This document shows, one piece after another, positions 2,864-31,694 of a DNA stretch of 32,000 bases. The position numbers were made by a program, and so were the translations under genes. This DNA comes from Patescibacteria group bacterium (GTDB lineage Bacteria > Patescibacteriota > UBA1384 > XYA2-FULL-43-10): NCBI GenBank assembly GCA_041674405.1, contig JBAYVT010000001.1, positions 210,001 to 242,000 on the forward strand, read 5' to 3'. Every line of letters begins with the position of its first letter. Position 1 is the first letter of the stretch. The notes under the pieces were generated by a model. The model made no database searches, was not told the origin of the DNA, and saw only the letters and a list, made by a program, of their open reading frames with translations.

Positions 2864-5800
2864 CTATGGATTTGTAACTGTGATAGGAGTAGTTGCAGAA
2901 GCAGTCACCCCAGCACTATCTTGGACTGTCACTTTGGCAGTATAGGTGCCGGCTGCAGTATATGTACAGACCCCGGATAGGGTTGGAGTGTCCTTAAGCA
3001 CTCTGACTGGAGTAGTGTTGCCAATCTTACAGTAGTAGGAGTAGGTCTTAGTGCCTGTGGCGCCACCGGTGACATTTGAGGTAAGGGCAACTGTTTGAGT
3101 ATTGTTTACAATCAAAGAGCTGGGAGTTGCATTGAGCGTTACGGCGAGAGATGCGGGAGGAGCAGCTGCTTGCGTTGTACAACGTATTGTCGTCGTCGCC
3201 ATTCTACCTGTAAGAATGTTGATTCCTGTTGGACGAGAGTTGACACACAATTTTCCAGTACCTCGCTGCCGAATTGAACTAATTAACTGGCTACCAGATG
3301 GGATATTTCGAATTATGAAGTAGCCTTGACCGTTTGTGATTGCGGCTTTCGGACCAATTTGGATGACGTAATTGGCGAGAATTGTTGAATCACTGGCGCT
3401 ACGCAGCGTCCCCTGGACCGATCCTAAATTTGTGATGTGTAGGGCTGCTAAAGCACTATCTGCCCAATTATTTAAGGTTTGAATGGCGGAAACTACGGTC
3501 GCCCGTACTGAGCTTATTACGGGAGCTAGAATTCTTTGATACTGAATACTTACTTTTTGAGATAACGGCAGTTTGTCGTAAGTACTCTGGATCCAAGAAC
3601 CATTAGAAATCTGGGCGTAGGTATATGGGATGCCGGTGACGCTTCCGCCAACCGATTTGAACACCTGGCCATCATCCGGGTCAACCCTACCGACATTGTC
3701 AGCAAACCATTGCCACATATACTTCATAATATTTTGGCACGTACCAGTAGTATGGTCTCTAATAATCCCATGAAGCCGTCCGTGCTGCATGAAATAAGCC
3801 CAGTAAAAGCTTGCAAAGAATTCATTATCATTGTCCCACGGGTGTCCTCCTGTATCCCCAGGCATCAGCTCAACATTCGAATCCGTTATCGCTCCCATCA
3901 CACAACCTTTATCCGGTCCAGCCATAACCCGGTTGTAAAGATCGTTCCATGGTGCATATATACTTGGAGTTGAATTCCTAATTTTCTCATTAACAGCGTG
4001 GCCGTACTCATGGGCGATGGTAGCGCCAACATCAGCACCGGTCGGGTCTGAAGCCAGTGAAAAGTCTAAAAGCTCGGTAGAAAAAATGATCGGCTTCACG
4101 TCTTTGCCAATTTTAGCGCAATTCCACATGCCGTTCCACTGGTATCCTTCAATTTTTCCCATTGGCAGGAAGCCAATCACAACAGGGCGGACATCCTTAG
4201 ATTGTGACTTTAACCTACGGAGTGATTGTGCCGCTTCATCGAAAATTGAGCTATGCTGCCCATATATAGTCTTGGGCTTGAATATCATATAAATACCATC
4301 GCCGTAATCTTTTAATAAACTGTTGTCATCAGGGCTGCAAAGGTCTTCGACATCACCGAGACGAGTCCAGTTATCATAGCCTGGAGTAAATTCTACCGGC
4401 GGGGACTTGGCGTTGTGCTTATTTATTCCCACGCGGTATGTGCCAGCGCTTGTCGGAACAAATTTGGCTGTTTCTTCTCCAAAATCATTGACGGCCAGAA
4501 AAGCCTTGTCGGCTGTCTTTGACCACGATCCGTCGGCAGTTTTCTTTTCCAGATAAAGGTCAGTATAATCGCAATCCTTGAAGTAGTCGTAGTTATAGAC
4601 ATATATTCCCGCCTGAGCTTCCAGGGCGGGGGCCTTTTGAAGAGTTAGGACGATGACCTTTGGTTGTTGTGTTTCGACGTCTTTTTCGACCACGGCGGTT
4701 GTATGTAGGAGTTTATATCCCTGTTTCAACACCATGAGATCCAGCGGCTGTCCCTCGGCAAACCCTTGAGGCACAATCCCGGCAGGGGGAGAAATTGGCG
4801 TCCTGTTGGGCTGCAAATAGCTCGAATAACTCTCGTAAAGGCTAAAATCGTTTTTTAATTTTAAATCGAGACCAGAAGACGATGTTCCAATGTAAGCGGC
4901 ATCTGTGAATCCGAGATTGGAAAAATAGTAGTTGTTAAGCTTATTTACCACAGTGGCCCCCGCAATTCTTTTACCACTCTCGTCAATAACTTTAATCGGT
5001 ACGGGCGAAAACTCAGATTGGCCGGTGTCTAATAGCATCAATAGATTCCTGGCGGCAAAATCTTTCTGTTGATCGAGGGTCAGCGAAAAATAATTTTGCG
5101 GTATTGTGAAACTTTGGGTTTTGGAAGCGCCATTTTTTGTTGCTTTGGCAGTATAGGTTTTCCCTAATTCAAACGAAAAATTTGCCTTCCCTAACCAGTC
5201 GGTAATTTTTGTTTGAACGACACCTTGGCCGTTTAGCGTAACTTCGGCGTCACCGATGGCTTTAAGTGTTTTGGAGTCAGCCACCATAATCGAGGCCGGT
5301 AGACCTGATGTTATATATTTTTGCAAAGAAAGTGTAATAGAAATCTTGCCCGTAAGTCCTACATCAAGCGTGATACGGCTTGAAGAGTTTTGCAGATATC
5401 CAGTTTTGAAGGCATCAACAGTCAGGACACCGGTGACATTTGTAAAGGATGCATACCCAGAAGTGTCAGTATTTTTCGATATAGGATTTTCGTCAGAAAT
5501 ATTCCTTCGCACATTAACCTGAGCAGCGACGATTGGTTTACTATCTTGATCCAAAACCTGAACTTTTATTTCGCGATCAAGTGTCTGCGCCCTTTGCAAA
5601 TTTACAATAGTTTCGTCTCCTCGCGTGTTGGGATAGCCAATAAAATCGTAGTAACCCACCTTTGTGACCTTGATCATCGGTACTGGAGCACATCCGTGAA
5701 ACTTCCACGCCAAATAATCGAAAATATCCTGGCTGTAAAAGTACGCTTTTCCCTGGGGATCCGTTATCTTGGAGGGCACATTCAGGTAGCTACATCCACG

Positions 5801-8775: not shown

Positions 8776-8806
8776 TAAAAATCAAGAACCCGCCGGGGAG
8801 GGCGGG
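8776..8806 (-). terminator. intrinsic terminator of the GC-rich 388-aa gene
   Basis: cccgcc-ggggag-ggcggg hairpin (8789-8806). On the minus strand it is followed by ttcttgattttt. Confidence 0.6.
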
Positions 8807-8883
8807 AACTTGGATACTTCTTCGGAGCGTGGAGCTCCAATTTGAGATTCGTGGAAAGAGGTACCCCGAAAAGCAGGATGGAC

Positions 8884-10050
8884 TTAGCCGGCCTTCAGGA
8901 CCCTAGGCGGGTCATTGGCGAAGTAGTCGGGAGCCTCATTGATCAGGCAGCGAATGCCCGCGTAGTACCATGCTCCATATCGGTATAGCGGTTTCTCACT
9001 AATGACGACCTGGTCGTCACCCACAAGATCCGTTATTACTTGCTGAAGCTCTGGCTCCCCTCCACTCATGACCACTCTGCCGTCCGCGGTCTGATAGACG
9101 CCCATAGCCAGTGGATGGTGGATTCGTTTGATCCGATGGAACTCGATGCCAGCGCGTATGGCCCGACGACGACACTCACGAAGCGTCGAATCAGGGTTGT
9201 ACTTTGGCGGTTTTCTCTGTCCCTGGAAGCCAGACCAGATCAAGGGGTCAGCAAGCAGGTGCAAGCCACCTCGACGGTCTTCAATTACGGCGAAGAACCG
9301 ATCGATGTGGTTGTCGGCGCCATAGCCCATCTTGCTCGCTTGTCCATCCAGGAAGGTAGCTGATACTTCCGGGAGTTCGAGCACTGCCATTCCCAGATCC
9401 TTGAGTGGCTGTATCGGCGGCGGTTTGAGCTCATAGCGATCTTCTCCCAACGCCTTCAACGTTTCTGGTCCAGGCATTTCGACCTTGTCGAACACAACTG
9501 CCAAAGACTGCCTGAAGAGTATCCGGCCGCCTTCGCCGTAGATACTGTCGACAACGTTGTTCTTTTCCACCCAAGCCGGATCGACGACCCGGCTATGTCG
9601 CGGATCGAGCACAGCTTGGAAGCGGTGCCAGCTCAGGTCCATCATCACCGTGCCATTCGGCAGCATGGTCCACAGGTCCCGAGGGAACCCTTGAACCAAG
9701 ATGTCAATGTCCGGGAAGTTGATGGTCGGGAAAGGGCCACTCTTCATCGCATCGAAATACTGCTGGCCCAGAAGCTCCCTAAAGGCTAGCATCACCATGG
9801 GAGTCAAACCTGCCGCAGCCAGCATGGAATAGATCAGGGCCCATTCTTCCGCAGCTTCCTGAGCCATTCCCCGGAGAATCCCCATGAATTCGGGGTCTTT
9901 GGCGGGAAGAGCATAGCTGCGGCCCGGGACTAAACTGTACCGGGAAAACGTTGGAAGCGGGTACGGCGCAAACCGCTCGTCTTGCCCATACGGTCTCGTC
10001 TTGTAGACGTTTGATACGGCAAAATGCGGCAAGCCATAAACGTGAATCAC
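8884..10050 (-). CDS. GC-rich orphan protein, about 388 aa, no recognisable family
   Basis: The long ORF in the track is 8884..10128. The preferred start is GTG at 10050, preceded by AAGGAGG with an 8-nt spacer. A candidate promoter TTGTGG-17-TACTAT lies at 10083-10111 (rc). The ORF is strongly GC-rich compared with its flanks. Confidence 0.6.
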   Translation of the reverse strand: MIHVYGLPHFAVSNVYKTRPYGQDERFAPYPLPTFSRYSLVPGRSYALPAKDPEFMGILRGMAQEAAEEWALIYSMLAAAGLTPMVMLAFRELLGQQYFDAMKSGPFPTINFPDIDILVQGFPRDLWTMLPNGTVMMDLSWHRFQAVLDPRHSRVVDPAWVEKNNVVDSIYGEGGRILFRQSLAVVFDKVEMPGPETLKALGEDRYELKPPPIQPLKDLGMAVLELPEVSATFLDGQASKMGYGADNHIDRFFAVIEDRRGGLHLLADPLIWSGFQGQRKPPKYNPDSTLRECRRRAIRAGIEFHRIKRIHHPLAMGVYQTADGRVVMSGGEPELQQVITDLVGDDQVVISEKPLYRYGAWYYAGIRCLINEAPDYFANDPPRVLKAG

Positions 10051-10206
10051 GCAGATGCCCTCCTTTCGGGCTTCGCTTTGGGATAGTACGGCTACATTTG
10101 GATTACCACAATTTTTAGAAAATAGCAAGGCTGGTTAAGTTCAAAATTATTTACGCTGCGTTTTCCAAAATATTTTATTTATCCACTTCCAAAGCGAAAA
10201 AAGTAT

Positions 10207-10640: not shown

Positions 10641-10661
10641 TTTCGTCTACTTGACGCGAAT

Positions 10662-10703
10662 AAAAGCAAAAATCCCCCAAAGGGGGATTTTTGCTTTTAT
10701 AAT
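10662..10703 (+). terminator. intrinsic terminator after the RRM gene
   Basis: 17-bp stem aaaagcaaaaatccccc-aaa-gggggatttttgctttt followed by a T-rich tail. Confidence 0.8.
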
Positions 10704-14236: not shown

Positions 14237-14440
14237 ATGGATCCAGAAGAGACACAAGAAGAAACAACCCCTGTTGAGGGTGGCGAAGCTGAAGGCACTG
14301 AGGCTCCAGCAGCACCAGAAGCGAATGCAGAAGGTGGAGAAGAATCAGAACTCGGTGCACCAGCCGACGAAGAAGCTCCAAAAGCTCCAGAGACGGGAGC
14401 CGAAGGCGAAAGTGAAGAAGAACCACCAGCCACAGAGTAA
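14237..14440 (+). CDS. small highly acidic, low-complexity (E/P/A/G/T-rich) protein
   Basis: ATG 14237 is preceded by GAGGAGG with an 8-nt spacer; the track start is 14201. The 67-aa product is MDPEETQEETTPVEGGEAEGTEAPAAPEANAEGGEESELGAPADEEAPKAPETGAEGESEEEPPATE, and a strong terminator follows. Confidence 0.45.
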   Translation: MDPEETQEETTPVEGGEAEGTEAPAAPEANAEGGEESELGAPADEEAPKAPETGAEGESEEEPPATE

Positions 14441-14451
14441 TTCAATTGAAC

Positions 14452-14489
14452 AATAAGAAAAATCAGGCCTTGGCCTGATTTTTCTTATT
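14452..14489. terminator. bidirectional intrinsic terminator between convergent genes
   Basis: Perfect 18-bp inverted repeat aataagaaaaatcaggcc/ggcctgatttttcttatt with A/T runs on both sides. Confidence 0.8.
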
Positions 14490-14500
14490 GTAAATATAAT

Positions 14501-15130
14501 TTATTCTGCGCTTGTATCTGTTGATATTTTGGAAACGACCACATCAAACATGTGTGTTCCGGAGGAAACAATATACATCGAAATATCGCCTTTATCAAAA
14601 TATGCACTGAACGAATCGCTTGTGTTGTAGTTCGCCGTTTTGGTATAGCCGGCATTTACAAAAGCATTTTCTATGTCTGAATATTTTGAGGCATTGACTT
14701 CATTTTTTGTAGTATAATACAGCGTTGCACTATCCGTTGCCGATGACCAAAGCGAAAGTTTTGCTCCGCCAAACAAATTGGTAAGTATTGGCTTGATTTC
14801 CGCATTAACAGAAATCGACAAGGAATCAGACGGAGTAACTTCTTGAACCTGTGAATAATCATTGGTATCAGTGCCAATATTTGTAGTGTCAGTGTTCACA
14901 CCGGTGGTGTCTTTGATCACATCCGACACTGCATTGTGGACTCTATTTTTGACAAAACGATAAATTCCATAACTAATTCCGCCACCCACAACTACAAGGA
15001 CGAGTACCACAATCAGGATAATCAATCCTACATTTGTTTTTTTCTTGGCTGGTGCGGCCTGTGTCGGCTGCGGCGCTGCCGTTTGCGCTGGTGCTGGCGC
15101 CTCAGGAGTATTTTTTTGATCCTCTGGCAT
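14501..15130 (-). CDS. single-pass membrane-anchored protein, unknown function
   Basis: Pro/Ala-rich N-terminus, one TM helix (VGLIILIVVLVLVVVGGGISYGIY) and an extracytoplasmic Ser/Thr/Asn-rich domain. Confidence 0.6.
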   Translation of the reverse strand: MPEDQKNTPEAPAPAQTAAPQPTQAAPAKKKTNVGLIILIVVLVLVVVGGGISYGIYRFVKNRVHNAVSDVIKDTTGVNTDTTNIGTDTNDYSQVQEVTPSDSLSISVNAEIKPILTNLFGGAKLSLWSSATDSATLYYTTKNEVNASKYSDIENAFVNAGYTKTANYNTSDSFSAYFDKGDISMYIVSSGTHMFDVVVSKISTDTSAE

Positions 15131-20142: not shown

Positions 20143-20169
20143 TGATTTCAACAATTAAAAGGGAATAAT

Positions 20170-20195
20170 AAAAACACCAATTTGTTGGTGTTTTT
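20170..20195. terminator. intrinsic terminator (bidirectional A/T tails)
   Basis: aaaaacaccaa-tttg-ttggtgttttt. Confidence 0.75.
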
Positions 20196-20199
20196 ATTA

Positions 20200-20218
20200 T
20201 GGTTCGGGGATAGGGATT
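20200..20218 (-). repeat. 19-nt duplicate of the tRNA-Gln 3' end (T-stem 3' strand, acceptor 3' strand and CCA)
   Basis: tggttcggggatagggatt is identical to 20372-20390. The sequence upstream of it cannot be folded into a cloverleaf. Confidence 0.8.
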
Positions 20219-20371
20219 TCGGGCATTCGCGCTGCTCACTTCTAAAAACCCTCGGTTTTTAGTGTTTTCCGCCAGCGGGAGACCAATTGTTCTCCCGACC
20301 CCTCTCTCGTCCGAACCCCATATATAACCACCCAAAAGAAAAACGACCACCAAAAGGTGATCATTTTTCTT

Positions 20372-20445
20372 TGGTTCGGGGATAGGGATTCGGACCCCAA
20401 TTCTTTGGACCAAAACCAAATGTCCTGCCATTAGACGATCCCCGA
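20372..20445 (-). tRNA. tRNA-Gln (anticodon UUG), CCA encoded
   Basis: The rc reads TCGGGGA TC GTCT AATGGCA GGAC A TTTGG TTTTGGT CCAAA GAAT TGGGG TCCGAAT CCCTA TCCCCGA ACCA. This is a 74-nt cloverleaf with a U1:A72 pair. A weak terminator, gatcacc-tttt-ggtggtc plus T-run, lies just downstream (20345-20362). Confidence 0.85.
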
Positions 20446-20621
20446 ATATCAAATTCTAATCCAAAACCCAGCTCCCAAACTTATCGTTTGCAAGCATTAG
20501 CATACCCGAAATCACTCGCATTTTCAACTAAAACACCCCAGCGTAAGCCGAGGTGTTACCCATTACAGGTCTCCCTGAATTGGGCCATAATTTGCGTTCG
20601 CTGGGGCTGTTTTAGGCTTTA

Positions 20622-20940
20622 TGAAGCATCCAATAAGCCGGGTTTTGTATAACGATAGCAATCTATCTACGCGTGGAGACCGCAGGTCACCTTCCGAGTC
20701 GGAATTGATGTCAGGCGGTCCACTCCACTTGCACCGAGCTAGGCTTGCCACAGACGCACATTGCTGTACGAACGCGTGAGCTCTTACCTCACGATTTCAA
20801 CCTTACCGGTCTTGCGACTTAGGCGGTATATTTTCTGTTGCGCTGTTCTCAGAGCTTTCACCCTGCTTGTTTTCACAAGCGCTCCACTCTGCGGTGCCCG
20901 GACTTTCCTCCCTTGCGGGTAGCTATCTAGAATGCTTTTA
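20622..20940 (-). ncRNA. rnpB: RNase P RNA (bacterial type, reduced)
   Basis: The rc of 20896-20911 is GGAGGAAAGTCCGGGC (P4 5' strand) and the rc of 20633-20648 is ACAAAACCCGGCTTAT (P4 3' strand). P1 pairs AAGCATTC (20930-20937) with GGATGCTT (20624-31). P2 pairs GATAGC with GCTATC. P3 is a minimal CCC-GCAA-GGG hairpin. Confidence 0.8.
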
Positions 20941-20950
20941 AAGCATTAAT

Positions 20951-20979
20951 ATTGTATCCGAAAATGACCAAAAAGTCAA
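20951..20979 (-). promoter_or_regulatory. sigma70-like promoter TTGACT-17-TACAAT for rnpB
   Basis: -35 is the rc of 20974-20979 and -10 is the rc of 20951-20956, with an exact 17-nt spacer. The TSS is predicted a few nt upstream of P1. Confidence 0.55.
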
Positions 20980-21006: not shown

Positions 21007-21028
21007 ATTATCTTATATTAAAATATTT
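21007..21028 (+). repeat. left copy of the perfect 22-bp direct repeat ATTATCTTATATTAAAATATTT
   Basis: Identical to 22383-22404. Confidence 0.9.
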
Positions 21029-21064
21029 AAATTATAGGATATTGATACAAAATTTTAGTTTTAA

Positions 21065-21098
21065 CCGAAGGCGCCAGGCCGCAAGGCCTGGCGCTCGG
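21065..21098 (-). terminator. GC-rich GNRA-loop hairpin directly after the HD-MTase stop codon
   Basis: ccga(ag)gcgccaggcc-gcaa-ggcctggcgc-tcgg. On the minus strand it is followed by ttaaaactaaaatttt. Confidence 0.65.
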
Positions 21099-21104
21099 TG
21101 ATAC

Positions 21105-22211
21105 TTAGTTGGTTCGGCCGAAAATCAGCCGGAAGGCTTCCGGGTCAACGCACGGATAGCCAGAAAAGTCGAAGTCGTGGTCTTCTGCGATCAGCGAGAA
21201 GCCTGGGAGCATCGCTTCGATCTGTCGACTTGCGACCTCGATGCTGTCTGCACCATAGGTCGGCGTGTAGCTCTCGATGACCTCGAGTCGCCCATCGCTT
21301 AAAGACAATACTCGGAGGAGTTCCTGTGGGCTGAGCGCATCGGGGCAGCGTAGTGCTACGTTCGCCATCACGATATCGCCAGCATCATCCGGAATCGGCA
21401 GTGCGTCCGCCGTCCCGGGCAAGATAATCTCTGGGGCGGAGTTGCGCAGCTTGGCCGTCTCGACAGAAAGCACAGCCGCGACTTTGCGATCTGCCTGTGA
21501 GGGTTCGACGCCGATGATCAGCTCAAGCGGAGTATGTTTCCGAAAGAGGCTGATTGGCAGTCTGCCGGGCCCAATCTCTATAAGGACCTTTGGCTCCTCG
21601 CCGCGCTCCGCACAAAGCACACCGTAGTTGCGAATGATGTTTCTCGCTACATTGGTGTGCCATTCGCTGGCATGGTTCGTGCCCCAGTACTGGGGAGTGA
21701 GCCTGATCTCCGGCCAGAGATAGGCCACCATTCCATGGAGATTCGGCCAGAAGAAGTCCCAGCCACCCTCAAAGCCGAACTCGGCCGCGAGTTTGTCGAA
21801 GTCCTCGCGAAAATCCGAGTACGCGCCAGCCATCCGTGATAGGTCGGCAGCACGCAAGATTTTCGCCTCGACGGTGACCGGCATGACGCCAGCATTGGTA
21901 GGTTTGATCGCATCGATCACTGCGGCGATCATGTGCTCCAGGTAGCCAAGTTTCCGCATCTCCTCGGCAGCCACCTTGGCACTCAGCTCCTCAGGAGTCG
22001 AGCACCCGAATTCTCGCGGATCCTTGCCAAACAACGCATCATGGAAAAGCGCTGCCCAGACAAGGACCTCAATCGAGACGTGGATGCCGCAATGTCGGCA
22101 TCGTTCTGCAAGCATGAAGGCAGTTGCGCAGACCCCCTGAGCATGCCTCCAATTATGGTACGGCCGCATGGTGTAATACGGCCAAGCCAATTTCTCGATG
22201 AATCCCAGCAT
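21105..22211 (-). CDS. GC-rich HD-domain phosphohydrolase fused to a methyltransferase-like Rossmann domain
   Basis: ATG 22211 is preceded by AGGGGGA with a 5-nt spacer; the track start is 22232. The N-terminus has RPYHNWRHAQGV...AALFHDALFG (an H...HD metal site). The C-terminus has VLIEIGPGRLP and IIGVEPS...GDIVMANVAL, which resemble SAM-MTase motifs I and IV. A candidate promoter TTGGAT-17-GATAAT lies at 22282-22310 (rc). Confidence 0.7.
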   Translation of the reverse strand: MLGFIEKLAWPYYTMRPYHNWRHAQGVCATAFMLAERCRHCGIHVSIEVLVWAALFHDALFGKDPREFGCSTPEELSAKVAAEEMRKLGYLEHMIAAVIDAIKPTNAGVMPVTVEAKILRAADLSRMAGAYSDFREDFDKLAAEFGFEGGWDFFWPNLHGMVAYLWPEIRLTPQYWGTNHASEWHTNVARNIIRNYGVLCAERGEEPKVLIEIGPGRLPISLFRKHTPLELIIGVEPSQADRKVAAVLSVETAKLRNSAPEIILPGTADALPIPDDAGDIVMANVALRCPDALSPQELLRVLSLSDGRLEVIESYTPTYGADSIEVASRQIEAMLPGFSLIAEDHDFDFSGYPCVDPEAFRLIFGRTN

Positions 22212-22323
22212 CTTGGTCCCCCTTGTGTACAAGCCTGAATTTCGAGCAGTGCTAGATTAACACAAAAAACATGTTCCGTAAATTATCCAAACATTAGTAC
22301 ATCCATCCAAATCTTATTATTCC

Positions 22324-22367
22324 AAACGTAACAATTTCTCCGCGACCGCGGAGAAATTGTTACGTTT
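22324..22367. repeat. perfect 21-bp-stem hairpin (aaacgtaacaatttctccgcg-ac-cgcggagaaattgttacgttt)
   Basis: Read directly from the sequence. The T-run follows only on the plus strand, where no upstream plus-strand gene exists. It lies 15 bp inside the right 22-bp repeat. Confidence 0.7.
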
Positions 22368-22382
22368 TTATTTCTAAAACAA

Positions 22383-22404
22383 ATTATCTTATATTAAAAT
22401 ATTT
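22383..22404 (+). repeat. right copy of the perfect 22-bp direct repeat
   Basis: Identical to 21007-21028. Confidence 0.9.
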
Positions 22405-22430: not shown

Positions 22431-22856
22431 TTATTTAATCATTTTCTTTAGATAAATATCTACTGGCTCCTTCGTGGTTTGGGTAAGCTTTTTGGGAAGT
22501 TTATCCGGTGGGAACCATCTCATATCCTCGTGCTTATTCGGTTCCATATTTTTTGGTTCCTGGCCGTCTCGGATTTTTGCCAGGTGGTGGATCGCCACCC
22601 AATGCTGACCTTCAATTATATGGTCCGTGTATCCTAGACACTCTAAGATATCAATATCGACTCCAATTTCCTCACGAATCTCTCGCTTTAGCATCTCTTC
22701 AACTGTTTCACCAAATTCAACCGTGCCGCCGGGCTTCGTCCAAAAACCGGCATCGTTATTGCTTTTTGACGTTCGTTTTAATAATAGAATTTCGTTGTTG
22801 TCATTGACAATTAAGGCACCGCCACCAACTCCGATGAAGTCTTTCCCTGGTTTTAT
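22431..22856 (-). CDS. NUDIX hydrolase with no canonical start codon (possible ATA start or pseudogene)
   Basis: The frame is open from 22870 downward. The Nudix box GGTVEFGETVEEMLKREIREEIGV spans the only ATG (22694), so an 87-aa product would be truncated. Upstream in frame there is no ATG, GTG or TTG. ATA at 22856 lies 5 nt after AAGGAG, which is embedded in the thrS end. Confidence 0.55.
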   Translation of the reverse strand: MKPGKDFIGVGGGALIVNDNNEILLLKRTSKSNNDAGFWTKPGGTVEFGETVEEMLKREIREEIGVDIDILECLGYTDHIIEGQHWVAIHHLAKIRDGQEPKNMEPNKHEDMRWFPPDKLPKKLTQTTKEPVDIYLKKMIK

Positions 22857-22858
22857 TT

Positions 22859-24583
22859 TTACTCCTTGACTTCTTTAATAACCGCAGATAAATCTTCTTG
22901 CCCTTTGTCGCCTTCGCCATATTTACGGACAGCGACTTTTTCAGCCTCGATTTCTTTGTCGCCGACAATAAGCATATATGGGATTTTTTGCATCTCGGCT
23001 TCGCGAATTTTTTTGCCGATCGATTCAGTACGATCATCAACCTTAACTCGAATTCCGGCTTCATTGAGCTCCTTTTCGATTTTTGCGGCGTAGTCCAAAT
23101 GTTTATCGGAGATTGGCAACACAATAGCCTGGACAGGAGCGAGCCATGTCGGAAATGCGCCGGCAACATTCTCGATATATATACCAAGAAAACGCTCGAT
23201 TGCCCCATAAATCACGCGATGGATCATTACAGGACGGACTTTTTCACCTTTTTCATCAATATAGGTCAAGTCGAATGTTTCCGGATTGGCAAAGTCAAGC
23301 TGTATTGTGCCGCACTGCCATGTGCGACCGATAGCATCCTTTAGATGAAAATCAAATTTCGGGCCATAGAATGCTCCATCACCTTCATTAACTTTATGTT
23401 CGATTTTGTTTTCAGCAAGAATTTCCTTCATTGTCGATTCTGCCTTTTCCCAAACCTCATCCGAACCGACTGACTTTTCCGGCCTTGTTGAAAGCTCAAT
23501 ATGATCAACTTTCATGCCAAATTTCTCATACATTTCAAAACATAAATCAAATACCTTTTTGATTTCTTCCTTTACCTGATCAGGCCGGCAATAGATGTGG
23601 GCATCATCTTGTGTAAACTGGCGAAGGCGCATAAGCCCATGGACTTCGCCCGAACCTTCGTAGCGGTGGACCAAGCCAATCTCCCCCATCTTTACCGGCA
23701 GATCTCGGTATGAATGAACCTTAGTCCTGTAAATCAGCATACCGCCGATGCAGTTCATTGGCTTTACAGCATAGGAATAATCTTTTTCATCGGGAGTTCT
23801 GGCTAAATACATTCTTTCGGCATAGTTTTTCATGTGTCCGCTCTGCTCCCAGACTTCTTTTAGCATCATGATTGGGGTATTTACCTCTTCGTATCTCTCA
23901 CGGCGATGAACCTGCCGCCAATACTCGAGCATTTTTTGAAATACAATCCAGCCATTATCATGCCAAAAAACAAAGTTTGGTCCTTCCTTGTGAAACGAAA
24001 AGAGATCCAGCTCCGTGGCAAGTTTGCGGTGATCGCGCTTCTCAGCTTCCAGTATGATTTCTTCATACTTTTTAAGCTCAGACTCGTTTTCAAACGCAAG
24101 AGCATATATCCTCTGTAGCATTTTGTTTTTCTCACTACCTCGCCAATAAGCACCGGCAATTTTATCAAGCTTAAAACCAACATTTTTGAGATCAGAGGTT
24201 GTATCAACGTGAGGACCAGCACAAAGATCGACAAATTCTCCTGTTTTGTAAAGTGAAACTTTGTCATTGCCACTACTCTTCAAATCTTTAATCAACTCCA
24301 ATTTGTAATTTTGTTTGTCAAATTTTTCAATTGCTTGGCTTATTTCCACTTCTGATTTTTCAAAGGCAAGATTCTTTTCAATAATCTCGCGCATTTTTTT
24401 CTCAAGTTTTGGCAAATCCTCCGGCACCAAAGCTCGGGGCAAGTCAAAATCATAATAAAAGCCATTTTCAATCGCCGGACCAATACCAAGTTTTGCATCA
24501 GGGAACATCTCAAGTACTGCCATCGCCAGTACATGGCTCAGCGAATGCCTCATGGTTTCAAGTTCAAATTTTTTTTCAGCCAT
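22859..24583 (-). CDS. thrS: threonine--tRNA ligase (short form lacking the N-terminal TGS domain)
   Basis: 574 aa. The editing-domain motif HSLSHVLAMAV starts at residue 13. Class II core motifs (HRYEGSGEVHGLMRLRQFTQDDAH, GAFYGPKFD) and a C-terminal anticodon-binding domain are present. Confidence 0.95.
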   Translation of the reverse strand: MAEKKFELETMRHSLSHVLAMAVLEMFPDAKLGIGPAIENGFYYDFDLPRALVPEDLPKLEKKMREIIEKNLAFEKSEVEISQAIEKFDKQNYKLELIKDLKSSGNDKVSLYKTGEFVDLCAGPHVDTTSDLKNVGFKLDKIAGAYWRGSEKNKMLQRIYALAFENESELKKYEEIILEAEKRDHRKLATELDLFSFHKEGPNFVFWHDNGWIVFQKMLEYWRQVHRRERYEEVNTPIMMLKEVWEQSGHMKNYAERMYLARTPDEKDYSYAVKPMNCIGGMLIYRTKVHSYRDLPVKMGEIGLVHRYEGSGEVHGLMRLRQFTQDDAHIYCRPDQVKEEIKKVFDLCFEMYEKFGMKVDHIELSTRPEKSVGSDEVWEKAESTMKEILAENKIEHKVNEGDGAFYGPKFDFHLKDAIGRTWQCGTIQLDFANPETFDLTYIDEKGEKVRPVMIHRVIYGAIERFLGIYIENVAGAFPTWLAPVQAIVLPISDKHLDYAAKIEKELNEAGIRVKVDDRTESIGKKIREAEMQKIPYMLIVGDKEIEAEKVAVRKYGEGDKGQEDLSAVIKEVKE

Positions 24584-24641: not shown

Positions 24642-25100
24642 TTATTTTATTAGACCCAATCTTTCAAATAATTCAATCGATGGTGGGGTTAGTTTAATTT
24701 TGTCTAGTTCCGAGATATCAGCCCATTGAAATATTTCAAGATCGTCGCCAATTTTTACCAAAATCTCACTCGCGTCTTCACTTGCCGATACCTTAAAAAC
24801 ATTGAAAGACATTGTGCACAAGACTTTTTCTCCGGTTGTTCGCAACGTTTTTTCCGACTCGCCAATTCCTTTGTCATCAATCAATTCAATGCTGTAATTC
24901 TTAATATTGATTCCTGTTTCCTCTGAAATTTCTCTCCGAAGTGCCGTCTCAAAATTTTCATCTTCATCCACGCCTCCTCCCGGAAGATGCCAAAAGTCCA
25001 CGTAAACTCCGCCTCCGTGAGCGTGTTTTTTACCAAGAAATATTTTTTTATCTTTTGAAATAATCATTGCGGAGACTATTTCACGATGGATTGTGCGCAT
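24642..25100 (-). CDS. NUDIX hydrolase
   Basis: Nudix box GGGVDEDENFETALRREISEETGI is present. 152 aa. Confidence 0.85.
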   Translation of the reverse strand: MRTIHREIVSAMIISKDKKIFLGKKHAHGGGVYVDFWHLPGGGVDEDENFETALRREISEETGINIKNYSIELIDDKGIGESEKTLRTTGEKVLCTMSFNVFKVSASEDASEILVKIGDDLEIFQWADISELDKIKLTPPSIELFERLGLIK

Positions 25101-25123
25101 TGTATTGATATTAAACTAAATAA

Positions 25124-25181
25124 AAAGACCAATTATCTCGAGACCCCAAACTTTGGGGGGTTCCATCTCGATATGGTCTTT
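25124..25181 (-). terminator. long interrupted hairpin / attenuator between glyA and NUDIX
   Basis: aaagacca...tcgaga-cccc...gggg...tctcga..tggtcttt. On the minus strand it is followed by ttatttagttt, only about 25 nt before the NUDIX ATG. Confidence 0.5.
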
Positions 25182-25298
25182 ATTTGCCGATTCGTTTCGG
25201 CTTACGCTGTTTCTCGCCGGTTGGTGAATCCGGGTCACTAAAACAGATTAATTGACATTAGTTTAACACATTTAGATAAGAACGTAAATATCTTCAGA

Positions 25299-26546
25299 TT
25301 ATTTCGTTATTCCCGGCACCGGAAAAACTTTTGTCATTTCTGCGACTTCCTTTTTGATTTCGGCAAGCTTTGATTCATTATTCATATTTTCAGCAACTAT
25401 ATTGAATAATTCAGCGATTCGCTGCATCTCTCCTGCTCCCATGCCACGAGTTGTCAGAGCGGCGGTGCCAACACGGATTCCAGAAGTGACCTTTGGGGGA
25501 TTTGGATCATTCGGGACGGCATTTTTGTTTACCGTAATGCCGGCTTTGTCGAGCGCGACTTCGAATTCCTTACCGGTGATTTTTTTGCTCTGTAAATCAA
25601 CCAAAATTAAATGATTATCCGTACCACCTGTTACCAAATCAAAGTCTAAGCTCATCAGGGTTTTGGCAAAAGTCTGCATATTGTCGAGGACTTTACCAAT
25701 ATACTCTTTAAATTCAGGCTTCAATGCTTCACCAAAAGCAACTGCCTTAGCGGCGATAATATGCTCAAGCGGACCTCCTTGAATACCCGGGAAAATCGTT
25801 TTGTTGATTTTTTTTGAGAGCTCCTCGTTATTGGTCATGATAATTCCTGACCTAGGGCCTCGCAAAGTTTTGTGAGTTGTTGAGGTAACAATATCTGCAA
25901 CTCCAACAGGGGATTCGTGGTAGCCCGTCGCAACGAGACCAGCGATATGGGCAATGTCTGCAAATAAAAGTGCACCGACTGAGTTTGCAATTTCGCGAAA
26001 TTTTTTAAAATCCAGCTTTCGCGGGTATGCAGAGTATCCACACATGATCACTTGTGGCTTAGCTTCTTTTGCTAATTCAGCAATTTGATTATAATCAAGC
26101 ACTCCTGTTTCTGGGTTCAGACCATAAGAATAGGATTCAAAAAACTTACCCGAAAATGAAACCTTTGATCCGTGGGTCAAGTGCCCGCCGGCATCAAGCG
26201 ATTGGCCCATAATTTTATCACCCGGTTTCAAGGTGGCAAAATACGCCGCCATATTAGCGCTGGAACCAGAATGCGGTTGGACATTGGCAAATTTGCAGCC
26301 GAATAATTTTTTAAGCCGATCAATAGCCAGGTTTTCGGCTTGATCGATAAACTCACAGCCGCCGTAATACCGTGCGCCGGGATAACCTTCGGCATATTTA
26401 TTGGTTAAAACCGAGCCTTGTGCTTCAAGCACTGCTTTTGATGGATAATTTTCAGACGCAATCATCTCAAGCCCTTCAGTCTGGCGCCTCTCTTCACAAC
26501 GGATGATGTCATACATTTCTTTGTCGTTTTTTTCAAGCTCGGTCAT
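25299..26546 (-). CDS. glyA: serine hydroxymethyltransferase
   Basis: 415 aa with the PLP-lysine motif [15 protein letters not shown]. The sequence reads as SHMT along its whole length (MIASENY..., [10 protein letters not shown]). Confidence 0.95.
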
Positions 26547-27199
26547 TTTTCCTCCAATTCATGATATTCAATTAACTCTTTTTTAAATTCACTATAAAAT
26601 CTTTTTAAGAACAAATTCCTGCGCCGTGCAATTTTCTTGGAATACGCAAAATGCAATTTATCCCATTTTATCATCGGATCTCTTCTGATTTGATCCAGCA
26701 GGCTATGATTCAGCCATATTTCTTCATCTTTTGGTACCGGTTTGTCAGTATATATTGGGAAACCTCTCTCGCCGAAGTAATATGCCAATCGCGCTATGCC
26801 GATTGCGCCAAGCATTTCAATTTTATCGGCATCTTGCAAAATCCTTACTTCATCTTTGTCTGATTTTTCAGCTTTATCTCCCTCATGATAGTTGTCGTGC
26901 AATTTAATAACTTCTAGAACAGCAGCAATTTTTTTCTTCGGGAAGCCAACTTCCGGCAGCCATTTTTCTGCTATTTCCATGCCATATTTGTAGTGGTGCC
27001 AATCGTCATCTTCATGATGCATAAAACCAATATCATGCATTAGGCATGCTGCTTCCAAAATTTCCGTATCACAAGGAACTTTTGCTGCAATTTTAAGCGC
27101 GTTATCCCGCACTCGAGTTAAATGGAAAAAATCATGACAGGCAGTATATCCTTCCAGATACTTCTTGATCTTTTTTTCCAAATCCTTTTGCCAGCTCAT
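26543..27199 (-). CDS. HD domain phosphohydrolase
   Basis: [10 protein letters not shown]...CLMHDIGF...LHD motifs are present. It overlaps the glyA start by 4 nt. Confidence 0.8.
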
Positions 27200-27300
27200 G
27201 TATTTCCTTGGAGTTACATGAATATTATAACCAGATCAGGCAATTTCTGCCACAGAAAATGAAAATATATGAGCTTTCTATGTAGTTATTAATCAGAAAT

Positions 27301-28908
27301 TTACAGCTCTTTCAGCCGTTCTTCAAATTCTTCGTCCAATTGAGATTTCAAATCTTCATGAAATTTGTCGTCATAATCTTTAACTGTGTCTTTAACTCGC
27401 CCGCAGCTTTTTTCTTCGAGGCAAAAATGCGGAATTTGGCATTTGGTCACCATCAGTTTTGCAATATTAGGCAATTTTTTCCGTTCAAGAATTTTTTTAA
27501 TTTTTTCCATTTCTTTAATAGCCATTGGGCGCAATTGCGCTTCAGCGGTCGTGCAGGTCCTCACCGGGTAATAACCAGCAATTAGATTATATAAATCGTA
27601 TTGCTGCAAAATATCCACCCTAACTCCGCGCGGCATAATGAAAATAGCATCAGAGGGCTTAATTTTGTATTTCCCAATGAGTAAGAAATATGCATCGAGA
27701 GCATTAATGACAATATTCAAATATTCATAAAGCAGACTTTTCTGCTTTTTTATAGTAGGCGGAATAGTGAAAAAACGATCAATAATTTTAAGGTCAGCCT
27801 CCGCTAGTTTTTCTTTGGCAATTTTATTGCGGTATTTCTCAAAGATTGGCTGGCAGCGGTCAATAGCATAATACAGCGAGTCTGGCGTCATTGGTACTGT
27901 CCTATGGCGTTTTTTGTCTCCCCAAACCCGCCAGGAAACTGCTGATAGCACCTTGACCGTAAGAGCAGTATTGTAGTCACGGCAAAAGTCATGCCGTAGA
28001 GCTAATAACTTACGCCAATTTTTTTTGATCATCCTTTTATTTGGGACTAATTCCTTTTCTTTCTTTACGATTTCCTTGGCGCTCCTATCAAGGCCTGGTG
28101 TAATTGTTGCATCTAAGCTAATTACATCGGACAAGTCGTTGGAGATACCTTTAGCTTTAATTAGTTCGCGTGTAATGTTTATCTTTGCTGGATCCTTAAA
28201 GGGATTAGGATAAGGAAGAACATTTCGGCCTGCAAGATCTCTGGAAGCATATACTAAATCCACGCCATATTTTTTTAGCTCTTTTTCAATTTTTTGGATC
28301 ATCATCTGGGCTTCTTCAGGCATCCAATCACCTTGCGATTCTGCTTCCTTCTTAAAAGCTATTACAGATTCAATCGGGTAAGCGATAATACCGGTACCAT
28401 ATATACCATAATGCAGTGTTTTTGATGCATCATCTTTGTTGATTCCACTTTTGAGCAATTTGTTTAGAAAATTGATATTATTATCTGAAATTTTTTTATA
28501 AATTGCTTTTGCTTCGGCATTATTGTTAATGGCAGTAGGGTATACTATGTCATCTACAGTGGTATCGGTGCGGCGTCCTGAAGCCATGAGCGCAGACGAG
28601 AAAACCATCCCGGTCATCAAAGAGTCAATAAATTTTGAAGCTTCATAGGTAAAACAGATCGCCGGTGTCGTGGCAATCGAGGCATGACCTCGAAGAGAGG
28701 ACCGGCGAATAATGCCTTTGACTTTTTTGTCTAGGTCCTGGCCTTTTTCACAGACATCTTTGTAAAGATCTTTGACGGATTTGCCTTTAAATGTCATTAA
28801 AGCAGACAGAGAAACCAAATCTTGAGGCTTAAGATATCCTGTTTTATCTGCTAAAACCGGAATCACCCCCAAAAATGTGACTTTCATGTCTGATACTTTT
28901 CTTGCCAT
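27301..28908 (-). CDS. ThyX-like FAD-dependent thymidylate synthase, tandem-duplicated 535-aa form
   Basis: The C-terminal half has VWGDKKRHRTVPMTPDSLYY (the ThyX RHR...S signature) and MPRGVRVD...YPVRTCTTAEAQLRPMA. The N-terminal half has LRGHASIATTP...SALMASGRR, a degenerate copy without RHR. Assignment is by motif only. Confidence 0.6.
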   Translation of the reverse strand: MARKVSDMKVTFLGVIPVLADKTGYLKPQDLVSLSALMTFKGKSVKDLYKDVCEKGQDLDKKVKGIIRRSSLRGHASIATTPAICFTYEASKFIDSLMTGMVFSSALMASGRRTDTTVDDIVYPTAINNNAEAKAIYKKISDNNINFLNKLLKSGINKDDASKTLHYGIYGTGIIAYPIESVIAFKKEAESQGDWMPEEAQMMIQKIEKELKKYGVDLVYASRDLAGRNVLPYPNPFKDPAKINITRELIKAKGISNDLSDVISLDATITPGLDRSAKEIVKKEKELVPNKRMIKKNWRKLLALRHDFCRDYNTALTVKVLSAVSWRVWGDKKRHRTVPMTPDSLYYAIDRCQPIFEKYRNKIAKEKLAEADLKIIDRFFTIPPTIKKQKSLLYEYLNIVINALDAYFLLIGKYKIKPSDAIFIMPRGVRVDILQQYDLYNLIAGYYPVRTCTTAEAQLRPMAIKEMEKIKKILERKKLPNIAKLMVTKCQIPHFCLEEKSCGRVKDTVKDYDDKFHEDLKSQLDEEFEERLKEL

Positions 28909-28946
28909 AAAACTCCTTGAAAAAGTTAATTAGTATATATTAAATT

Positions 28947-29528
28947 TCAAAATCGTAACTCTTCTTTGATAAGTTCAACTTCGGGTGTCATATCAAAATA
29001 CTCGCTGTTTATCTTGATTTTGCCTCGAAATTTTTCGCAAATTATTCCCCTTTTATTGGCCAAGCGTCTTGCTTCCGGCTCAGATTCTTTCTTGGATCCG
29101 TCACTGCCTTCCTTGACTCTTAAATATTCGTCTAAATAAATAATCTTTTTGATTCCAAGATTGTTCAGTGCCTTTAAGCAGTCATAGCATGGAAAGAGGG
29201 TAATATATAAGGTTGAGCCTTTCAGGCGCTCAGTGTTGCCGGAATTAATAATCGCATTTATCTCGCTATGTGCCCCACGGCAACGCTGAATTTCATTCGT
29301 GTCCGGATCTCCATGCACCTTTGCGCAACCTTCATCAATACAATGAATATCGCCGGCGGTCGGCCCATTATAACCCAAAGAAATTACCCTGTGGTTTTCA
29401 TCCACAAAAACGGAACCGACTTTGTGAAAAATACAAGCGGTTCTTTCCGCAGCAGCAACGGCAATGGTCATAAAAAACTCATCCCAAGAAAGCCTATGGT
29501 TTCTTTGATATTTCTTATCTTTTGCCAT
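28947..29528 (-). CDS. dCMP (deoxycytidylate) deaminase family zinc enzyme
   Basis: Zinc motifs GAHSEINAI (H-x-E) and PCYDCLKAL (PCxxC) are present. 193 aa. Confidence 0.8.
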   Translation of the reverse strand: MAKDKKYQRNHRLSWDEFFMTIAVAAAERTACIFHKVGSVFVDENHRVISLGYNGPTAGDIHCIDEGCAKVHGDPDTNEIQRCRGAHSEINAIINSGNTERLKGSTLYITLFPCYDCLKALNNLGIKKIIYLDEYLRVKEGSDGSKKESEPEARRLANKRGIICEKFRGKIKINSEYFDMTPEVELIKEELRF

Positions 29529-29542
29529 TTGTCCTCCGGTTA

Positions 29543-30082
29543 TTACACTTGGATTTCTTTACCCTTGCTGGTTACCCTTCCACCTTTCCATTGTCCCCGA
29601 TATGCATTTGATTTCCCCGATATCTCAAAAAACATTATATGAACGATTCTGGCACCTAGTTCAATTTCAAATTCGCATGGACCAGAATTATAAAACAGAA
29701 ATGAAAGTTCCCCGCAATATCCTGGATCGATTTTTCCACCGGACATAATAATTCCTGATCGAAACAGGGTGCTCCTAAGCCACATCGCAGCAGTCAAATT
29801 CAGTGGCATATTTACCTTTTCGTTAGTTGTCACCAAGTAGCAATCGCCCGGTTTGAAAATAACTGATTGTTTTTTTTCTGGTATATATTCATATAACAAT
29901 TTTGAGTCAGTCGAGTCGCGTTCGGTAAGCCCCATAAATCCCCTGCCGCTTATTTCATGCACTTTTCCAAGACACAGGTCAAAACCACAGCCCTCTGGAT
30001 TTGTAAGCTCTCTTTCACACAGGTTTTCAACTAATTTTTGTTTTTTGACAAGATCCAAGAGTTTGTCCACGCCGAGTACCAT
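29543..30082 (-). CDS. dCTP deaminase / dUTPase superfamily protein
   Basis: SGGKIDPGYCGELSFLFYN is typical of the dCTP deaminase/dUTPase beta-barrel family. 179 aa. Confidence 0.75.
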   Translation of the reverse strand: MVLGVDKLLDLVKKQKLVENLCERELTNPEGCGFDLCLGKVHEISGRGFMGLTERDSTDSKLLYEYIPEKKQSVIFKPGDCYLVTTNEKVNMPLNLTAAMWLRSTLFRSGIIMSGGKIDPGYCGELSFLFYNSGPCEFEIELGARIVHIMFFEISGKSNAYRGQWKGGRVTSKGKEIQV

Positions 30083-30427: not shown

Positions 30428-30688
30428 ATGAAACCAAGCGTATATATTTTAAAACTCGATGACGGAAGTTATTATATTGGATCAACTCGCGACTTAAAGA
30501 GACGCATTGCTGAACACCGGAAAGGTTTAAAAGCCAGTACAAGATTTTCTAAGAATCCCCAGATCGTATTCTTCCAGAATTTTGAAACTTATCATCAAGC
30601 TCGAATTATCGAGATAAAATTAAAATCCTATAAAAGTCGCAAAGTGATCGAAAAAATTATTAAGGAAGGAAAAATTAACAAATTATAA
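30428..30688 (+). CDS. GIY-YIG nuclease family protein (stand-alone URI domain)
   Basis: VYILKLDDGSYYIGSTRDLKRRIAEHRKG matches the GIY...YIG...R...E pattern. 86 aa. Confidence 0.85.
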   Translation: MKPSVYILKLDDGSYYIGSTRDLKRRIAEHRKGLKASTRFSKNPQIVFFQNFETYHQARIIEIKLKSYKSRKVIEKIIKEGKINKL

Positions 30689-30692
30689 TAAT

Positions 30693-30821: not shown

Positions 30822-31694
30822 TTACTTTTTGGCTTTTTTCTTGACCGCAATTTTGGCAGCTTGTTTCGGTGCGACTTTCGGTACAGTAATAGTCAAAATT
30901 CCGTTGTCCATCTCAGCTTCGGCCTTTTCTGATTTAACTTCGGATGGCAGTGTGAAGCTTCTAGTAAATGATCCAGTATACATTTCTTTGTGATAAAATC
31001 CCTCGTCTTTTTCTTCCTTTTCCTCTTTTTTCTCACCAGAAATTGTCATTATGTTATCGGCAACTTCAACAGTGACATCTTCCTCGGCAACTCCCGGAAG
31101 TTCGGCTTTGACTATGACAGCGTCTTTGGTTTCTTTTACATTGATTTTCGGCATTCCGCCAGCCTTGGCTGGGGTGACAACGCTTTCCTCAAAAAGACGA
31201 TCCATTGCATCACGGAGAGTAACCATTTCTCCGAAAGGGCGCCACGGCCCAATTTCTCTTGGCATAGAATTCTCCTTTACCCCGAGCCTGTCGAGGGGTT
31301 TACCCACCTCATCGAGCCTGTCGAGGGGTTTACCCACCTCATCGAGCCTGTCGAGGGGTTTACCCACCTCATCGAGCCTGCCGAGGAGTCTCTCGTCCTC
31401 AATTTGTCCGAGTTGCCCAGCAGTTGCGGGGTTATGATTAATAATTTTTATTGGTGAATTATTTTCAAACATTTGATTAATTTCTTTTTCAAAATCAAAT
31501 ATTTCCTCAAATGCAGAATTGAAAAAATTGCACATCGATACAACAAGGGGTAGTGATGGCATATATTTCCCCTGCTCAAGAGCGATCACAGACTGCCGGG
31601 AAATACCCAGAGCTTCGGCCAGTTCCTCTTGTGAAAGATCGTGTTGGCGACGAAGTTCGCGCAATCTGTTTTGAATGTTTGGTTCTTCTTTCAT
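30822..31694 (-). CDS. XRE-family HTH domain fused to an Hsp20/alpha-crystallin small heat-shock protein
   Basis: The N-terminus LRELRRQHDLSQEELAEALGISRQSVIALEQGK is an HTH_XRE domain. A 3x LDEVGKPLDR linker follows. The C-terminus WRPFGEM...VKAELPGVAEEDVTVEVADNIMTISGEK...GSFTRSFTLP...NGILTITVPK is an alpha-crystallin domain. An internal ATG at 31265 with its own AAGGAG SD (31272-31277) could also yield a stand-alone sHSP. Confidence 0.85.
   Translation of the reverse strand: MKEEPNIQNRLRELRRQHDLSQEELAEALGISRQSVIALEQGKYMPSLPLVVSMCNFFNSAFEEIFDFEKEINQMFENNSPIKIINHNPATAGQLGQIEDERLLGRLDEVGKPLDRLDEVGKPLDRLDEVGKPLDRLGVKENSMPREIGPWRPFGEMVTLRDAMDRLFEESVVTPAKAGGMPKINVKETKDAVIVKAELPGVAEEDVTVEVADNIMTISGEKKEEKEEKDEGFYHKEMYTGSFTRSFTLPSEVKSEKAEAEMDNGILTITVPKVAPKQAAKIAVKKKAKK
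31283..31388 (-). repeat. tandem repeat, 3 perfect 30-bp units plus a diverged partial unit, in-frame coding
   Basis: The unit cgagcctgtcgaggggtttacccacctcat occurs at 31283, 31313 and 31343. The partial fourth copy has 2 mismatches. It encodes the decapeptide LDEVGKPLDR. Confidence 0.9.

Follow-up and report, generated by a model that had tools for sequence, protein, structure and literature searches.

A perfect 22-bp direct repeat brackets a GC-rich single-gene unit between a ThrRS-NUDIX operon and rnpB in a Patescibacteria genome

In a 32,000-nucleotide stretch of a Patescibacteria genome (assembly GCA_041674405.1, contig JBAYVT010000001.1, positions 210,001 to 242,000; hereafter the window), a single GC-rich gene with its own transcription signals lies between two identical copies of a 22-bp direct repeat. 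This gene, hereafter the HD gene, encodes an HD phosphohydrolase fused to an S-adenosylmethionine (SAM) methyltransferase-like region. It stands between an operon encoding threonyl-tRNA synthetase (ThrRS) and a NUDIX hydrolase, on one side, and rnpB, the RNase P RNA gene, on the other. The islet, a single gene flanked by repeats, is real and clean, and there is no evidence that it represents a new kind of mobile cassette. We tentatively favour an explanation in which a circular copy of the unit entered, or re-entered, this site through a recent single crossover at the 22-bp identity. We propose that the repeat marks this recent insertion or re-insertion, and not the first arrival of the HD family in the clade.

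A scan of the whole window retrieved exactly two copies of the 22-mer ATTATCTTATATTAAAATATTT, at 21007-21028 and 22383-22404, and no third copy at up to 3 mismatches; 100 shuffles gave 0 matches. The longest substring common to the flanks was 22 nt, versus at most 10 nt in shuffled flanks. Similarity between the two copies ends at the repeat edges, the outer flanks being unrelated (p = 0.63 and 0.95), and no extended similarity was detected around them. A gap of 27 nt separates the left copy from the rnpB -35 box, and the right copy lies 26 nt past the NUDIX stop codon. The identical direct repeat reported by the initial annotation of the window is thereby borne out. Three assemblies, the Joint Genome Institute (JGI) contig, ENA and Logan, agree base for base at this structure: the ENA MEGAHIT contig k141_1464549 (395,669 bp) is 99.995% identical across 18.5 kb, insert included, and the Logan contig SRR6484325_496270 is 100% identical across 3695 bp, spanning both repeats. 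An assembly chimera, in which a shared k-mer had drawn the GC-rich gene into the contig, would fit the strong contrast in composition and a repeat length near small assembler k values. We rejected this candidate, to which we give next to no credence: the junctions are identical in the MEGAHIT k141, Logan k=31 and JGI contigs, and homologous GC-rich genes sit within AT-rich contexts on five other contigs. An assembly artefact is effectively refuted. The sole structural difference over the 18.5 kb concerns a 30-bp in-frame tandem repeat (31283-31386, 3.5 copies) inside an HTH-HSP20 gene (30822-31694), which is 60 bp (two units) shorter in the ENA assembly of the same strain.

The segment between the repeats measures 1354 bp, with a GC content of 0.55-0.60 (~58%) versus 0.29-0.45 in the flanks, a range typical of the window, the genome being at roughly 40%. 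Its sole credible gene (21105-22211, minus strand; ATG at 22211, stop at 21105-21107) encodes 368 amino acids, with a GC content at third codon positions (GC3) of 0.67, versus 0.35-0.44 in the neighbouring genes. Pfam recognized the HD domain (5.8e-06). The C-terminal region displayed a weak likeness to SAM-dependent methyltransferases (PDB 1xxl, E = 3.6e-4), and distant two-domain relatives carry the source names HD phosphohydrolase or SAM methyltransferase. PADLOC returned zero matches for the gene and NCBIfam only sub-threshold matches to HD domains, while an AlphaFold model built on a 5-sequence alignment reached a mean predicted local distance difference test score of 52 and was confident in the HD domain only. 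Upstream of the gene, on the same strand, we identified a putative ribosome-binding site (22217-22224, AAGGGGGA, 5 nt before the ATG), read from the sequence and aligned with the related loci L087 and L088, and a predicted promoter (22254-22282) composed of a -35 box TTTACG, a 17-nt spacer and an extended -10 element TGTGT-TAATCT. The promoter block TTGTGnTAATCTAnCACTGC and the -35 box align with the upstream regions of the L087 and L088 homologues. Directly after the stop codon, a G+C-rich hairpin (21065-21098, minus strand; stem GCGCCAGGCC/GGCCTGGCGC, outer pairs CCGA/TCGG) folds at -30 to -32 kcal/mol, with a z-score of about -6 (-5.8). Its stem recurs at this position in L087, L088 and L089; over the four loci, all 40 cells are paired, and compensatory changes affect 2 of the 10 pairs. 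We read this hairpin, from its conservation and its place, as the HD gene's own Rho-independent terminator. Promoter, ribosome-binding site, open reading frame and terminator being all present, the earlier description of 1354 bp that carry only this gene with its own promoter stands.

The second hairpin (AATTTCTCCGCG, 22324-22367) is a perfect 21-bp palindrome that sits 15 nt inside the right repeat and 64 nt past the NUDIX stop, with a z-score of -10 and a T-run on the plus strand. Hairpins of the same style, AT-rich palindromes after genes, are found in the window at 10660-10700, 14433-14508 and 20165-20200, a hairpin akin to it lies downstream of the L088 HD homologue, and long palindromes likewise occur in the tails of L093, L094 and L088. 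By its form, the hairpin at 22324-22367 looks like one of the host's ordinary bidirectional terminators. Rfam, searched at permissive thresholds, gave nothing beyond hairpin-driven sub-threshold matches. Altogether, the segment 21029-22404 consists of a full transcription unit and an AT-rich leader of about 100 bp that holds the palindromic terminator. Both hairpins lie where the initial annotation had placed them, and its reading of them needs amendment. The first was described as a GNRA-loop hairpin: the hairpin is there, with the GCAA on the non-transcribed strand and UUGC on the gene strand. The second was taken for a terminator of the plus strand only: the palindrome reads alike on both strands, and what is specific to the plus strand is the longer T-run. 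A role for them as recombination ends is not upheld, since one appears to be the conserved HD terminator and the other a host-style palindromic terminator, and neither shows features typical of recombination sites.

Palindromes of this kind, long, perfect and AT-rich with a small G+C apex, appear more widely as intergenic terminators, in sequence families that span loci and genomes. In the relatives they are located at 4855-4874 in L093, 1325-1353 in L088 and about 4000-4045 in L094; the apex CCCCGTACGGGG is present in both the L093 and the L088 palindromes, and ATAAAAGCAAAAATC is common to the palindrome at 10660 of the window and the L094 tail. A candidate similarity between the hairpin modules of L093 and L088 disappeared after removal of the shared CCCCGTACGGGG apex. 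Breaks in Logan contigs tend to fall at such palindromes.

By arithmetic, removing the insert and one repeat copy brings the NUDIX stop (22431) to within about 75 nt of the rnpB -35 box (20979), so that the claim that such a deletion rejoins the NUDIX stop to the rnpB promoter with a short spacer is plausible. On the rnpB side, the flanking host genes are rnpB itself, of bacterial class A (20619-20938, 149.7 bits), and tRNA-Gln (20372-20445), both on the minus strand, with a predicted rnpB promoter P1 at 20951-20979 (minus strand; TTGACT, 17-nt spacer, TACAAT), placed by its position relative to the rnpB 5' end. On the other side lies the NUDIX gene (22431-22850, minus strand), followed by ThrRS. 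In the reconstructed spacer, TTGATA-17-GATAAT (10 of 12 positions), which the insert now parts from rnpB, would fall about 56 nt upstream of P1, and the two would plausibly form a tandem arrangement of stable-RNA promoters. The NUDIX gene itself lacks a canonical start: over 22431-22880 no ATG, GTG or TTG precedes the NUDIX box, gene callers yield an 87-amino-acid fragment starting inside it, and the likeliest start is an ATA codon that overlaps the ThrRS stop and follows an AAGGAG motif by 5 nt.

In the explanation that we favour, a circular copy of the unit, with a single 22-mer, would have recombined with an identical chromosomal 22-mer, as in Campbell-type integration. One reciprocal crossover would have placed the unit where it now stands, past the 3' end of the ThrRS-NUDIX operon and ahead of the rnpB promoter, leaving one 22-mer per junction and no likeness beyond. 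The crossover may be the work of a recombinase whose gene lies elsewhere in the genome and which acted in trans, as in cis-mobilizable elements (CIMEs), or may have come about by short-homology recombination after DNA uptake. The predicted empty-site junction would read ...CTCACAAAAAG-ATTATCTTATATTAAAATATTT-TTATCAAATAAG... and the predicted circle junction ...TTTCTAAAACAA-ATTATCTTATATTAAAATATTT-AAATTATAGGATATT... (21064 to 21029, the 22-mer, then 22382 onwards); both are exact and hence searchable in reads. The event would be recent, the HD family itself recurring, GC-rich and in shifting positions, in the ThrRS neighbourhood of the clade. Synonymous sites are saturated between the lineages (synonymous divergence, dS, >2, and about 3 for the closest pair), from which it follows that a neutral 22/22 identity must be far younger than the lineage splits, that neutral intergenic sequence is not comparable across these lineages, and that the perfect repeat must be much younger than the association of the HD gene with the region.

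This association was traced through the relatives of the host and of the gene. At NCBI, an identical ThrRS bears the name Patescibacteria. By ThrRS, the nearest named relatives are Berkelbacteria and Saccharibacteria (62-69% identity), and closer ones are L093 (88%), L094 (83%), L087 (about 82%), L095 (76%) and L099 (75%). For the HD protein, a word-indexed search found 5 relatives and a profile search 1175 matches, about ten of them close. Every close homologue with a readable context lies in the same ThrRS and nucleotide-metabolism neighbourhood, and its position there differs among L087, L090, L099 and the window. In L087 it lies about 2.5 kb downstream of ThrRS and is flanked by two further GC-rich single-gene units; in L090 the order is ThrRS, NUDIX, TrmB, HD and a convergent gene; in L099 it is tRNA-Val, HD, TrmB and dUTPase, onward to ThrRS; and the L089 homologue has the same convergent downstream neighbour as that of L090. 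These shifting positions fit repeated local relocation. Identity to the HD protein of the window (L088, 61%; L087, 56%; L089, 49%; L090 and L099, about 36%) decreases in parallel with the ThrRS order (88, about 82, then about 75%), L088 and L093 both coming from the sample SRR22315504. Because the HD family recurs in the same neighbourhood in several lineages of the Candidate Phyla Radiation (CPR), GC-rich in nearly all of them, it appears from these comparisons to be long-standing in the region and no newly arrived foreign cargo. The initial annotation was right to call the cassette GC-rich, and its composition is foreign to the host genome. In L090 and L099 the HD gene is divergently paired with a TrmB-family regulator gene, and TGTCA-N7-8-TGACA palindromes lie upstream of the HD homologues in L087 (2950-2975), L090 (1395-1470) and L099 (1700-1800), which suggests that these are putative TrmB operators; the window copy has neither an adjacent TrmB gene nor this motif.

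The arrangement in L088 may bear on the circle. There the order is promoter, HD, terminator, spacer and a AATTTCTCC...GGAGAAATT hairpin, whose alignment with the window hairpin was beaten by 0 of 200 shuffles. This order would be that of the window cassette circularly permuted at the 22-mer, as expected from a reopened circle, an argument that is suggestive only.

Several results weigh against the crossover that we favour. The circular-permutation argument is insecure, the L088 contig having no 5' context. A weak alignment of the L093 tail runs over both edges of the right copy and continues into the hairpin (p = 0.005); this would make the right side ancestral and not a junction, unless L093 holds the same element. 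No empty site, circular junction or second insertion was found, and the three assemblies all carry the insert. An exact scan of the JGI metagenome contigs for the 22-mer retrieved four unrelated AT-rich chance matches only; IMG/VR gave zero, and the 22-mer is absent from the relatives. No recombinase or transposase domain was detected in the sizeable open reading frames of the 32-kb window, as the initial annotation had noted for integrases and transposases; the analysis covered about 35 kb of a contig of 250-396 kb. Among the inverted arms of the reconstructed attB, attP, attL and attR sites, the best reached 9/11 (attB, p = 0.09), the other three having p > 0.4. Finally, none of nine other GC-rich units, including a second one in the window, has flanking repeats above chance.

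The wider searches for mobility can be described together. Exact-protein look-ups with ThrRS and NUDIX returned the same strain only: the ENA and Logan contigs span the site with the insert, and L002 ends inside NUDIX. The contigs of the closest ThrRS relatives (88% and 83%) end just after ThrRS, the GTDB relatives (at most 63% ThrRS identity) showed no rnpB synteny, and the NUDIX relatives (at most 66% identity) no synteny. Neither the 22-mer nor the palindromic hairpin recurred in about 1 Mb of fetched loci and IMG/VR, save that a hairpin akin to the latter follows the L088 homologue. The cassette ends are not paired by any inverted repeat, and a search for a donor met with no HD homologue in PLSDB plasmids, INPHARED phages or IMG/VR. 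The proposal of a mobile, non-autonomous element has gained nothing from these searches: no empty site turned up in relatives or metagenomes, and neither a further 22-mer or hairpin nor a same-ended cassette in the window, the 1 Mb of loci or IMG/VR.

Our main alternative, which we regard as rather unlikely, involves no mobile element. The HD unit would already have been downstream of the ThrRS operon, and repair, template switching or unequal crossover would have brought rnpB-tRNA-Gln adjacent to it, or moved the unit slightly, duplicating 22 bp of the native NUDIX 3' region. Such a local rearrangement accords with HD homologues in the same neighbourhood in L087, L090 and L099 and with a gene order that differs in every relative. 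Against the L093 tail, the right copy and the hairpin look contiguous with native sequence, the hairpin has the form of the host terminators and is placed where a NUDIX terminator is expected, and the lack of a recombinase, of a second copy and of repeats at other GC-rich units points the same way. However, the edges of the duplication are sharp, with no similarity beyond them, the reconstructed empty site is clean, and placing a 1.35-kb unit while duplicating exactly 22 bp at both ends is simpler as a crossover or a staggered cut. The L093 similarity, moreover, is weak and lies in AT-rich sequence whose neutral sites are saturated. L093 also displays, right after the ThrRS stop (4784-4850), an inverted pair ACAAATTATCTTA ... 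TAAGATAATCAATTTGT that encloses 32 nt richer in G+C; the pair has 13 nt in common with the inner junction of the right copy in the window (22378-22390).

Selection or gene conversion could instead have kept the two copies identical if the 22-mer were a protein-binding or promoter/UP-type element, with one copy lying upstream of rnpB and the second upstream of the HD unit. AT-rich upstream elements are frequent at stable-RNA promoters. The 22-mer holds -10-like motifs (GATAAT/TAAGAT), and the minus-strand end of the right copy, GATAAT, together with TTGATA at 22411-22406, forms a sigma-70-like site that matches 10 of 12 positions at 17-nt spacing; in addition, ATTATCTTA occurs twice in L093, as an inverted pair just downstream of ThrRS. 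We nevertheless consider this explanation improbable: binding sites are rarely identical at 22 of 22 positions with an abrupt loss outside, the left copy has no -35 partner, no third copy exists in the 32 kb, and the upstream regions of the L087 and L088 HD homologues have no conserved counterpart.

The sharp edges of the repeat, which directly abuts the insert, would also be expected of a target-site duplication made with a 22-nt stagger by a transposase-, casposase- or Cas1-like enzyme, the cassette then being a non-autonomous transposon. This is very improbable. Target-site duplications usually measure 2-15 bp (ISfinder tables), which leaves 22 bp outside the range; terminal inverted repeats are missing from the cassette, its ends were seen nowhere else, and the window has no transposase. 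A miniature inverted-repeat transposable element or other non-autonomous transposon is likewise short, transposase-free and duplication-flanked; the unit in the window, by contrast, has no terminal inverted repeats, a full gene, a 22-bp duplication and a single copy.

The element is small and integrase-free, and an exploitation of Xer recombination was therefore weighed, in which the 22-mer would lie within a chromosomal dif site at the terminus and XerC/D would have integrated the cassette as an IMEX (integrative mobile element that exploits Xer) or dif module. The cumulative GC skew peaks at 20223, genes are uniformly on the minus strand to the right of the site, and TTATATTAAAA agrees, by eye, with the canonical XerD arm at 9 of 11 positions. 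However, a position weight matrix derived from six canonical dif sites scored the left copy at 6.1 bits, versus shuffle maxima of 6.5-14.6, and nothing in the window exceeded the shuffles. The 11-6-11 inverted arms are not significant, and the skew mostly follows the gene strand, with no flip in third-position skew. We find this reading scarcely credible. IMEXs and the pdif modules of Acinetobacter are small, recombinase-free, and moved by the host XerC/D at sites of about 28 bp (PMC7399989, PMC6744903), the inner palindromic arms of dif occupying positions 7-12 and 17-22 (PMC3025954). The islet resembles them in having one or few genes and no recombinase of its own, and in being bracketed by sites; it differs in that the 22-mer does not score as a dif and lacks significant 11-6-11 arms, and in that the sites flanking pdif modules are inverted whereas the repeats of the window are direct.

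Closer parallels exist for the crossover that we favour. CIMEs have lost integration and transfer genes and kept attL and attR intact (PMC6323972). The islet shares with such att-flanked elements the direct repeats at both ends (22 bp here), the lack of integrase and transfer genes inside, and a recombinase that would act in trans. It differs from them in having no known cognate autonomous element or integrase and no detectable recombinase-binding arms, in its site 68 nt upstream of rnpB and not at the 3' end of a tRNA or tmRNA, in its size of 1.35 kb with one gene, and in that three assemblies give no evidence of excision or integration. A short-homology insertion of the Campbell type after natural transformation would similarly duplicate a short identity at both junctions by integration of a circle. 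For RecA-dependent exchange, by contrast, 22 bp is at the lower limit, and nothing here shows a donor-circle source of the 22-mer. An integron cassette also has a single open reading frame, a hairpin-forming end and a recombinase encoded elsewhere; such cassettes, mostly promoterless, are arrayed beside intI/attI and bounded by attC, an imperfect palindrome that has extrahelical bases and R''/R' cores of the form GTTRRRY. Unlike it, the window hairpin is a perfect palindrome with no extrahelical bases, lying 15 nt inside the repeat, no GTTRRRY core is found at the junctions, the unit has its own conserved promoter and terminator, and the window has no intI, attI or cassette array and no tyrosine recombinase. 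An undescribed cassette type, as suggested in the initial annotation, is not supported by present evidence: att-flanked elements moved in trans are already described as CIMEs, IMEXs and pdif modules.

The composition of the HD gene extends beyond the window. GC3 values across the HD homologues are 0.67, 0.71, 0.64, 0.58 and 0.80 (L089: 0.44), versus 0.35-0.57 in host genes. Codon usage correlates among GC-rich units across genomes and gene families (r = 0.43-0.66), whereas the correlation of these units with host genes is -0.3 to 0.15. Units that are GC-rich with their own promoter and terminator were observed in the window (21105-22211), L087 (2259-4805), L088, L090 (1481-2422) and L099 (694-1638 and 8461-8841). 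The second such unit of the window (8790-10110, minus strand) has about 56% GC and a GC3 of 0.64; its open reading frame (about 8884-10044/10128) has no match in Pfam, NCBIfam or PADLOC and correlates with the HD gene in codon usage at r = 0.64. It has a predicted promoter with an extended -10 element (TTGCTA-17-TGTGG-TAATCC), a putative G+C-rich terminator (CCCGCC-GGGGA-GGGCGGG, about 8790-8808) and no flanking direct repeat.

Two readings of the high GC3 are considered: the gene may have been acquired recently and repeatedly, from a GC-rich pool and into a single neighbourhood, or a gene-specific process may maintain GC3. Since GC3 values of 0.58-0.80 are found in AT-rich genomes whose ThrRS synonymous sites are saturated, atypical GC is no simple evidence of recent transfer. 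One could further imagine that the GC-rich single-gene units, with their AT-rich promoter, GC-rich open reading frame and GC-rich terminator, form a clade-specific class of cassettes that pass between related genomes as circular intermediates and insert at short AT-rich cores through a host-encoded recombinase, the 22-bp repeat being the first intact attL/attR pair. Frequent exchange, through GC-biased conversion at hot spots, or a GC-rich extrachromosomal pool would then keep GC3 high. We attach a low probability to such a class.

The window also carries a conserved nucleotide-metabolism cluster (24642-30082, minus strand) comprising dUTPase, dCMP deaminase, ThyX, a 218-amino-acid HD protein, SHMT and NUDIX, then ThrRS; the gene set is kept in relatives, in reshuffled order. 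A small GIY-YIG gene (30430-30690) adjoins tRNA-Val.

If the repeat is an integration scar, the islet would provide a clean, dated case of streamlined Patescibacteria gaining or reshuffling single accessory genes without a recombinase of their own. The persistence of GC-rich third positions in long-diverged AT-rich genomes is relevant to the maintenance of base composition, and to the practice of taking atypical GC as proof of recent transfer.

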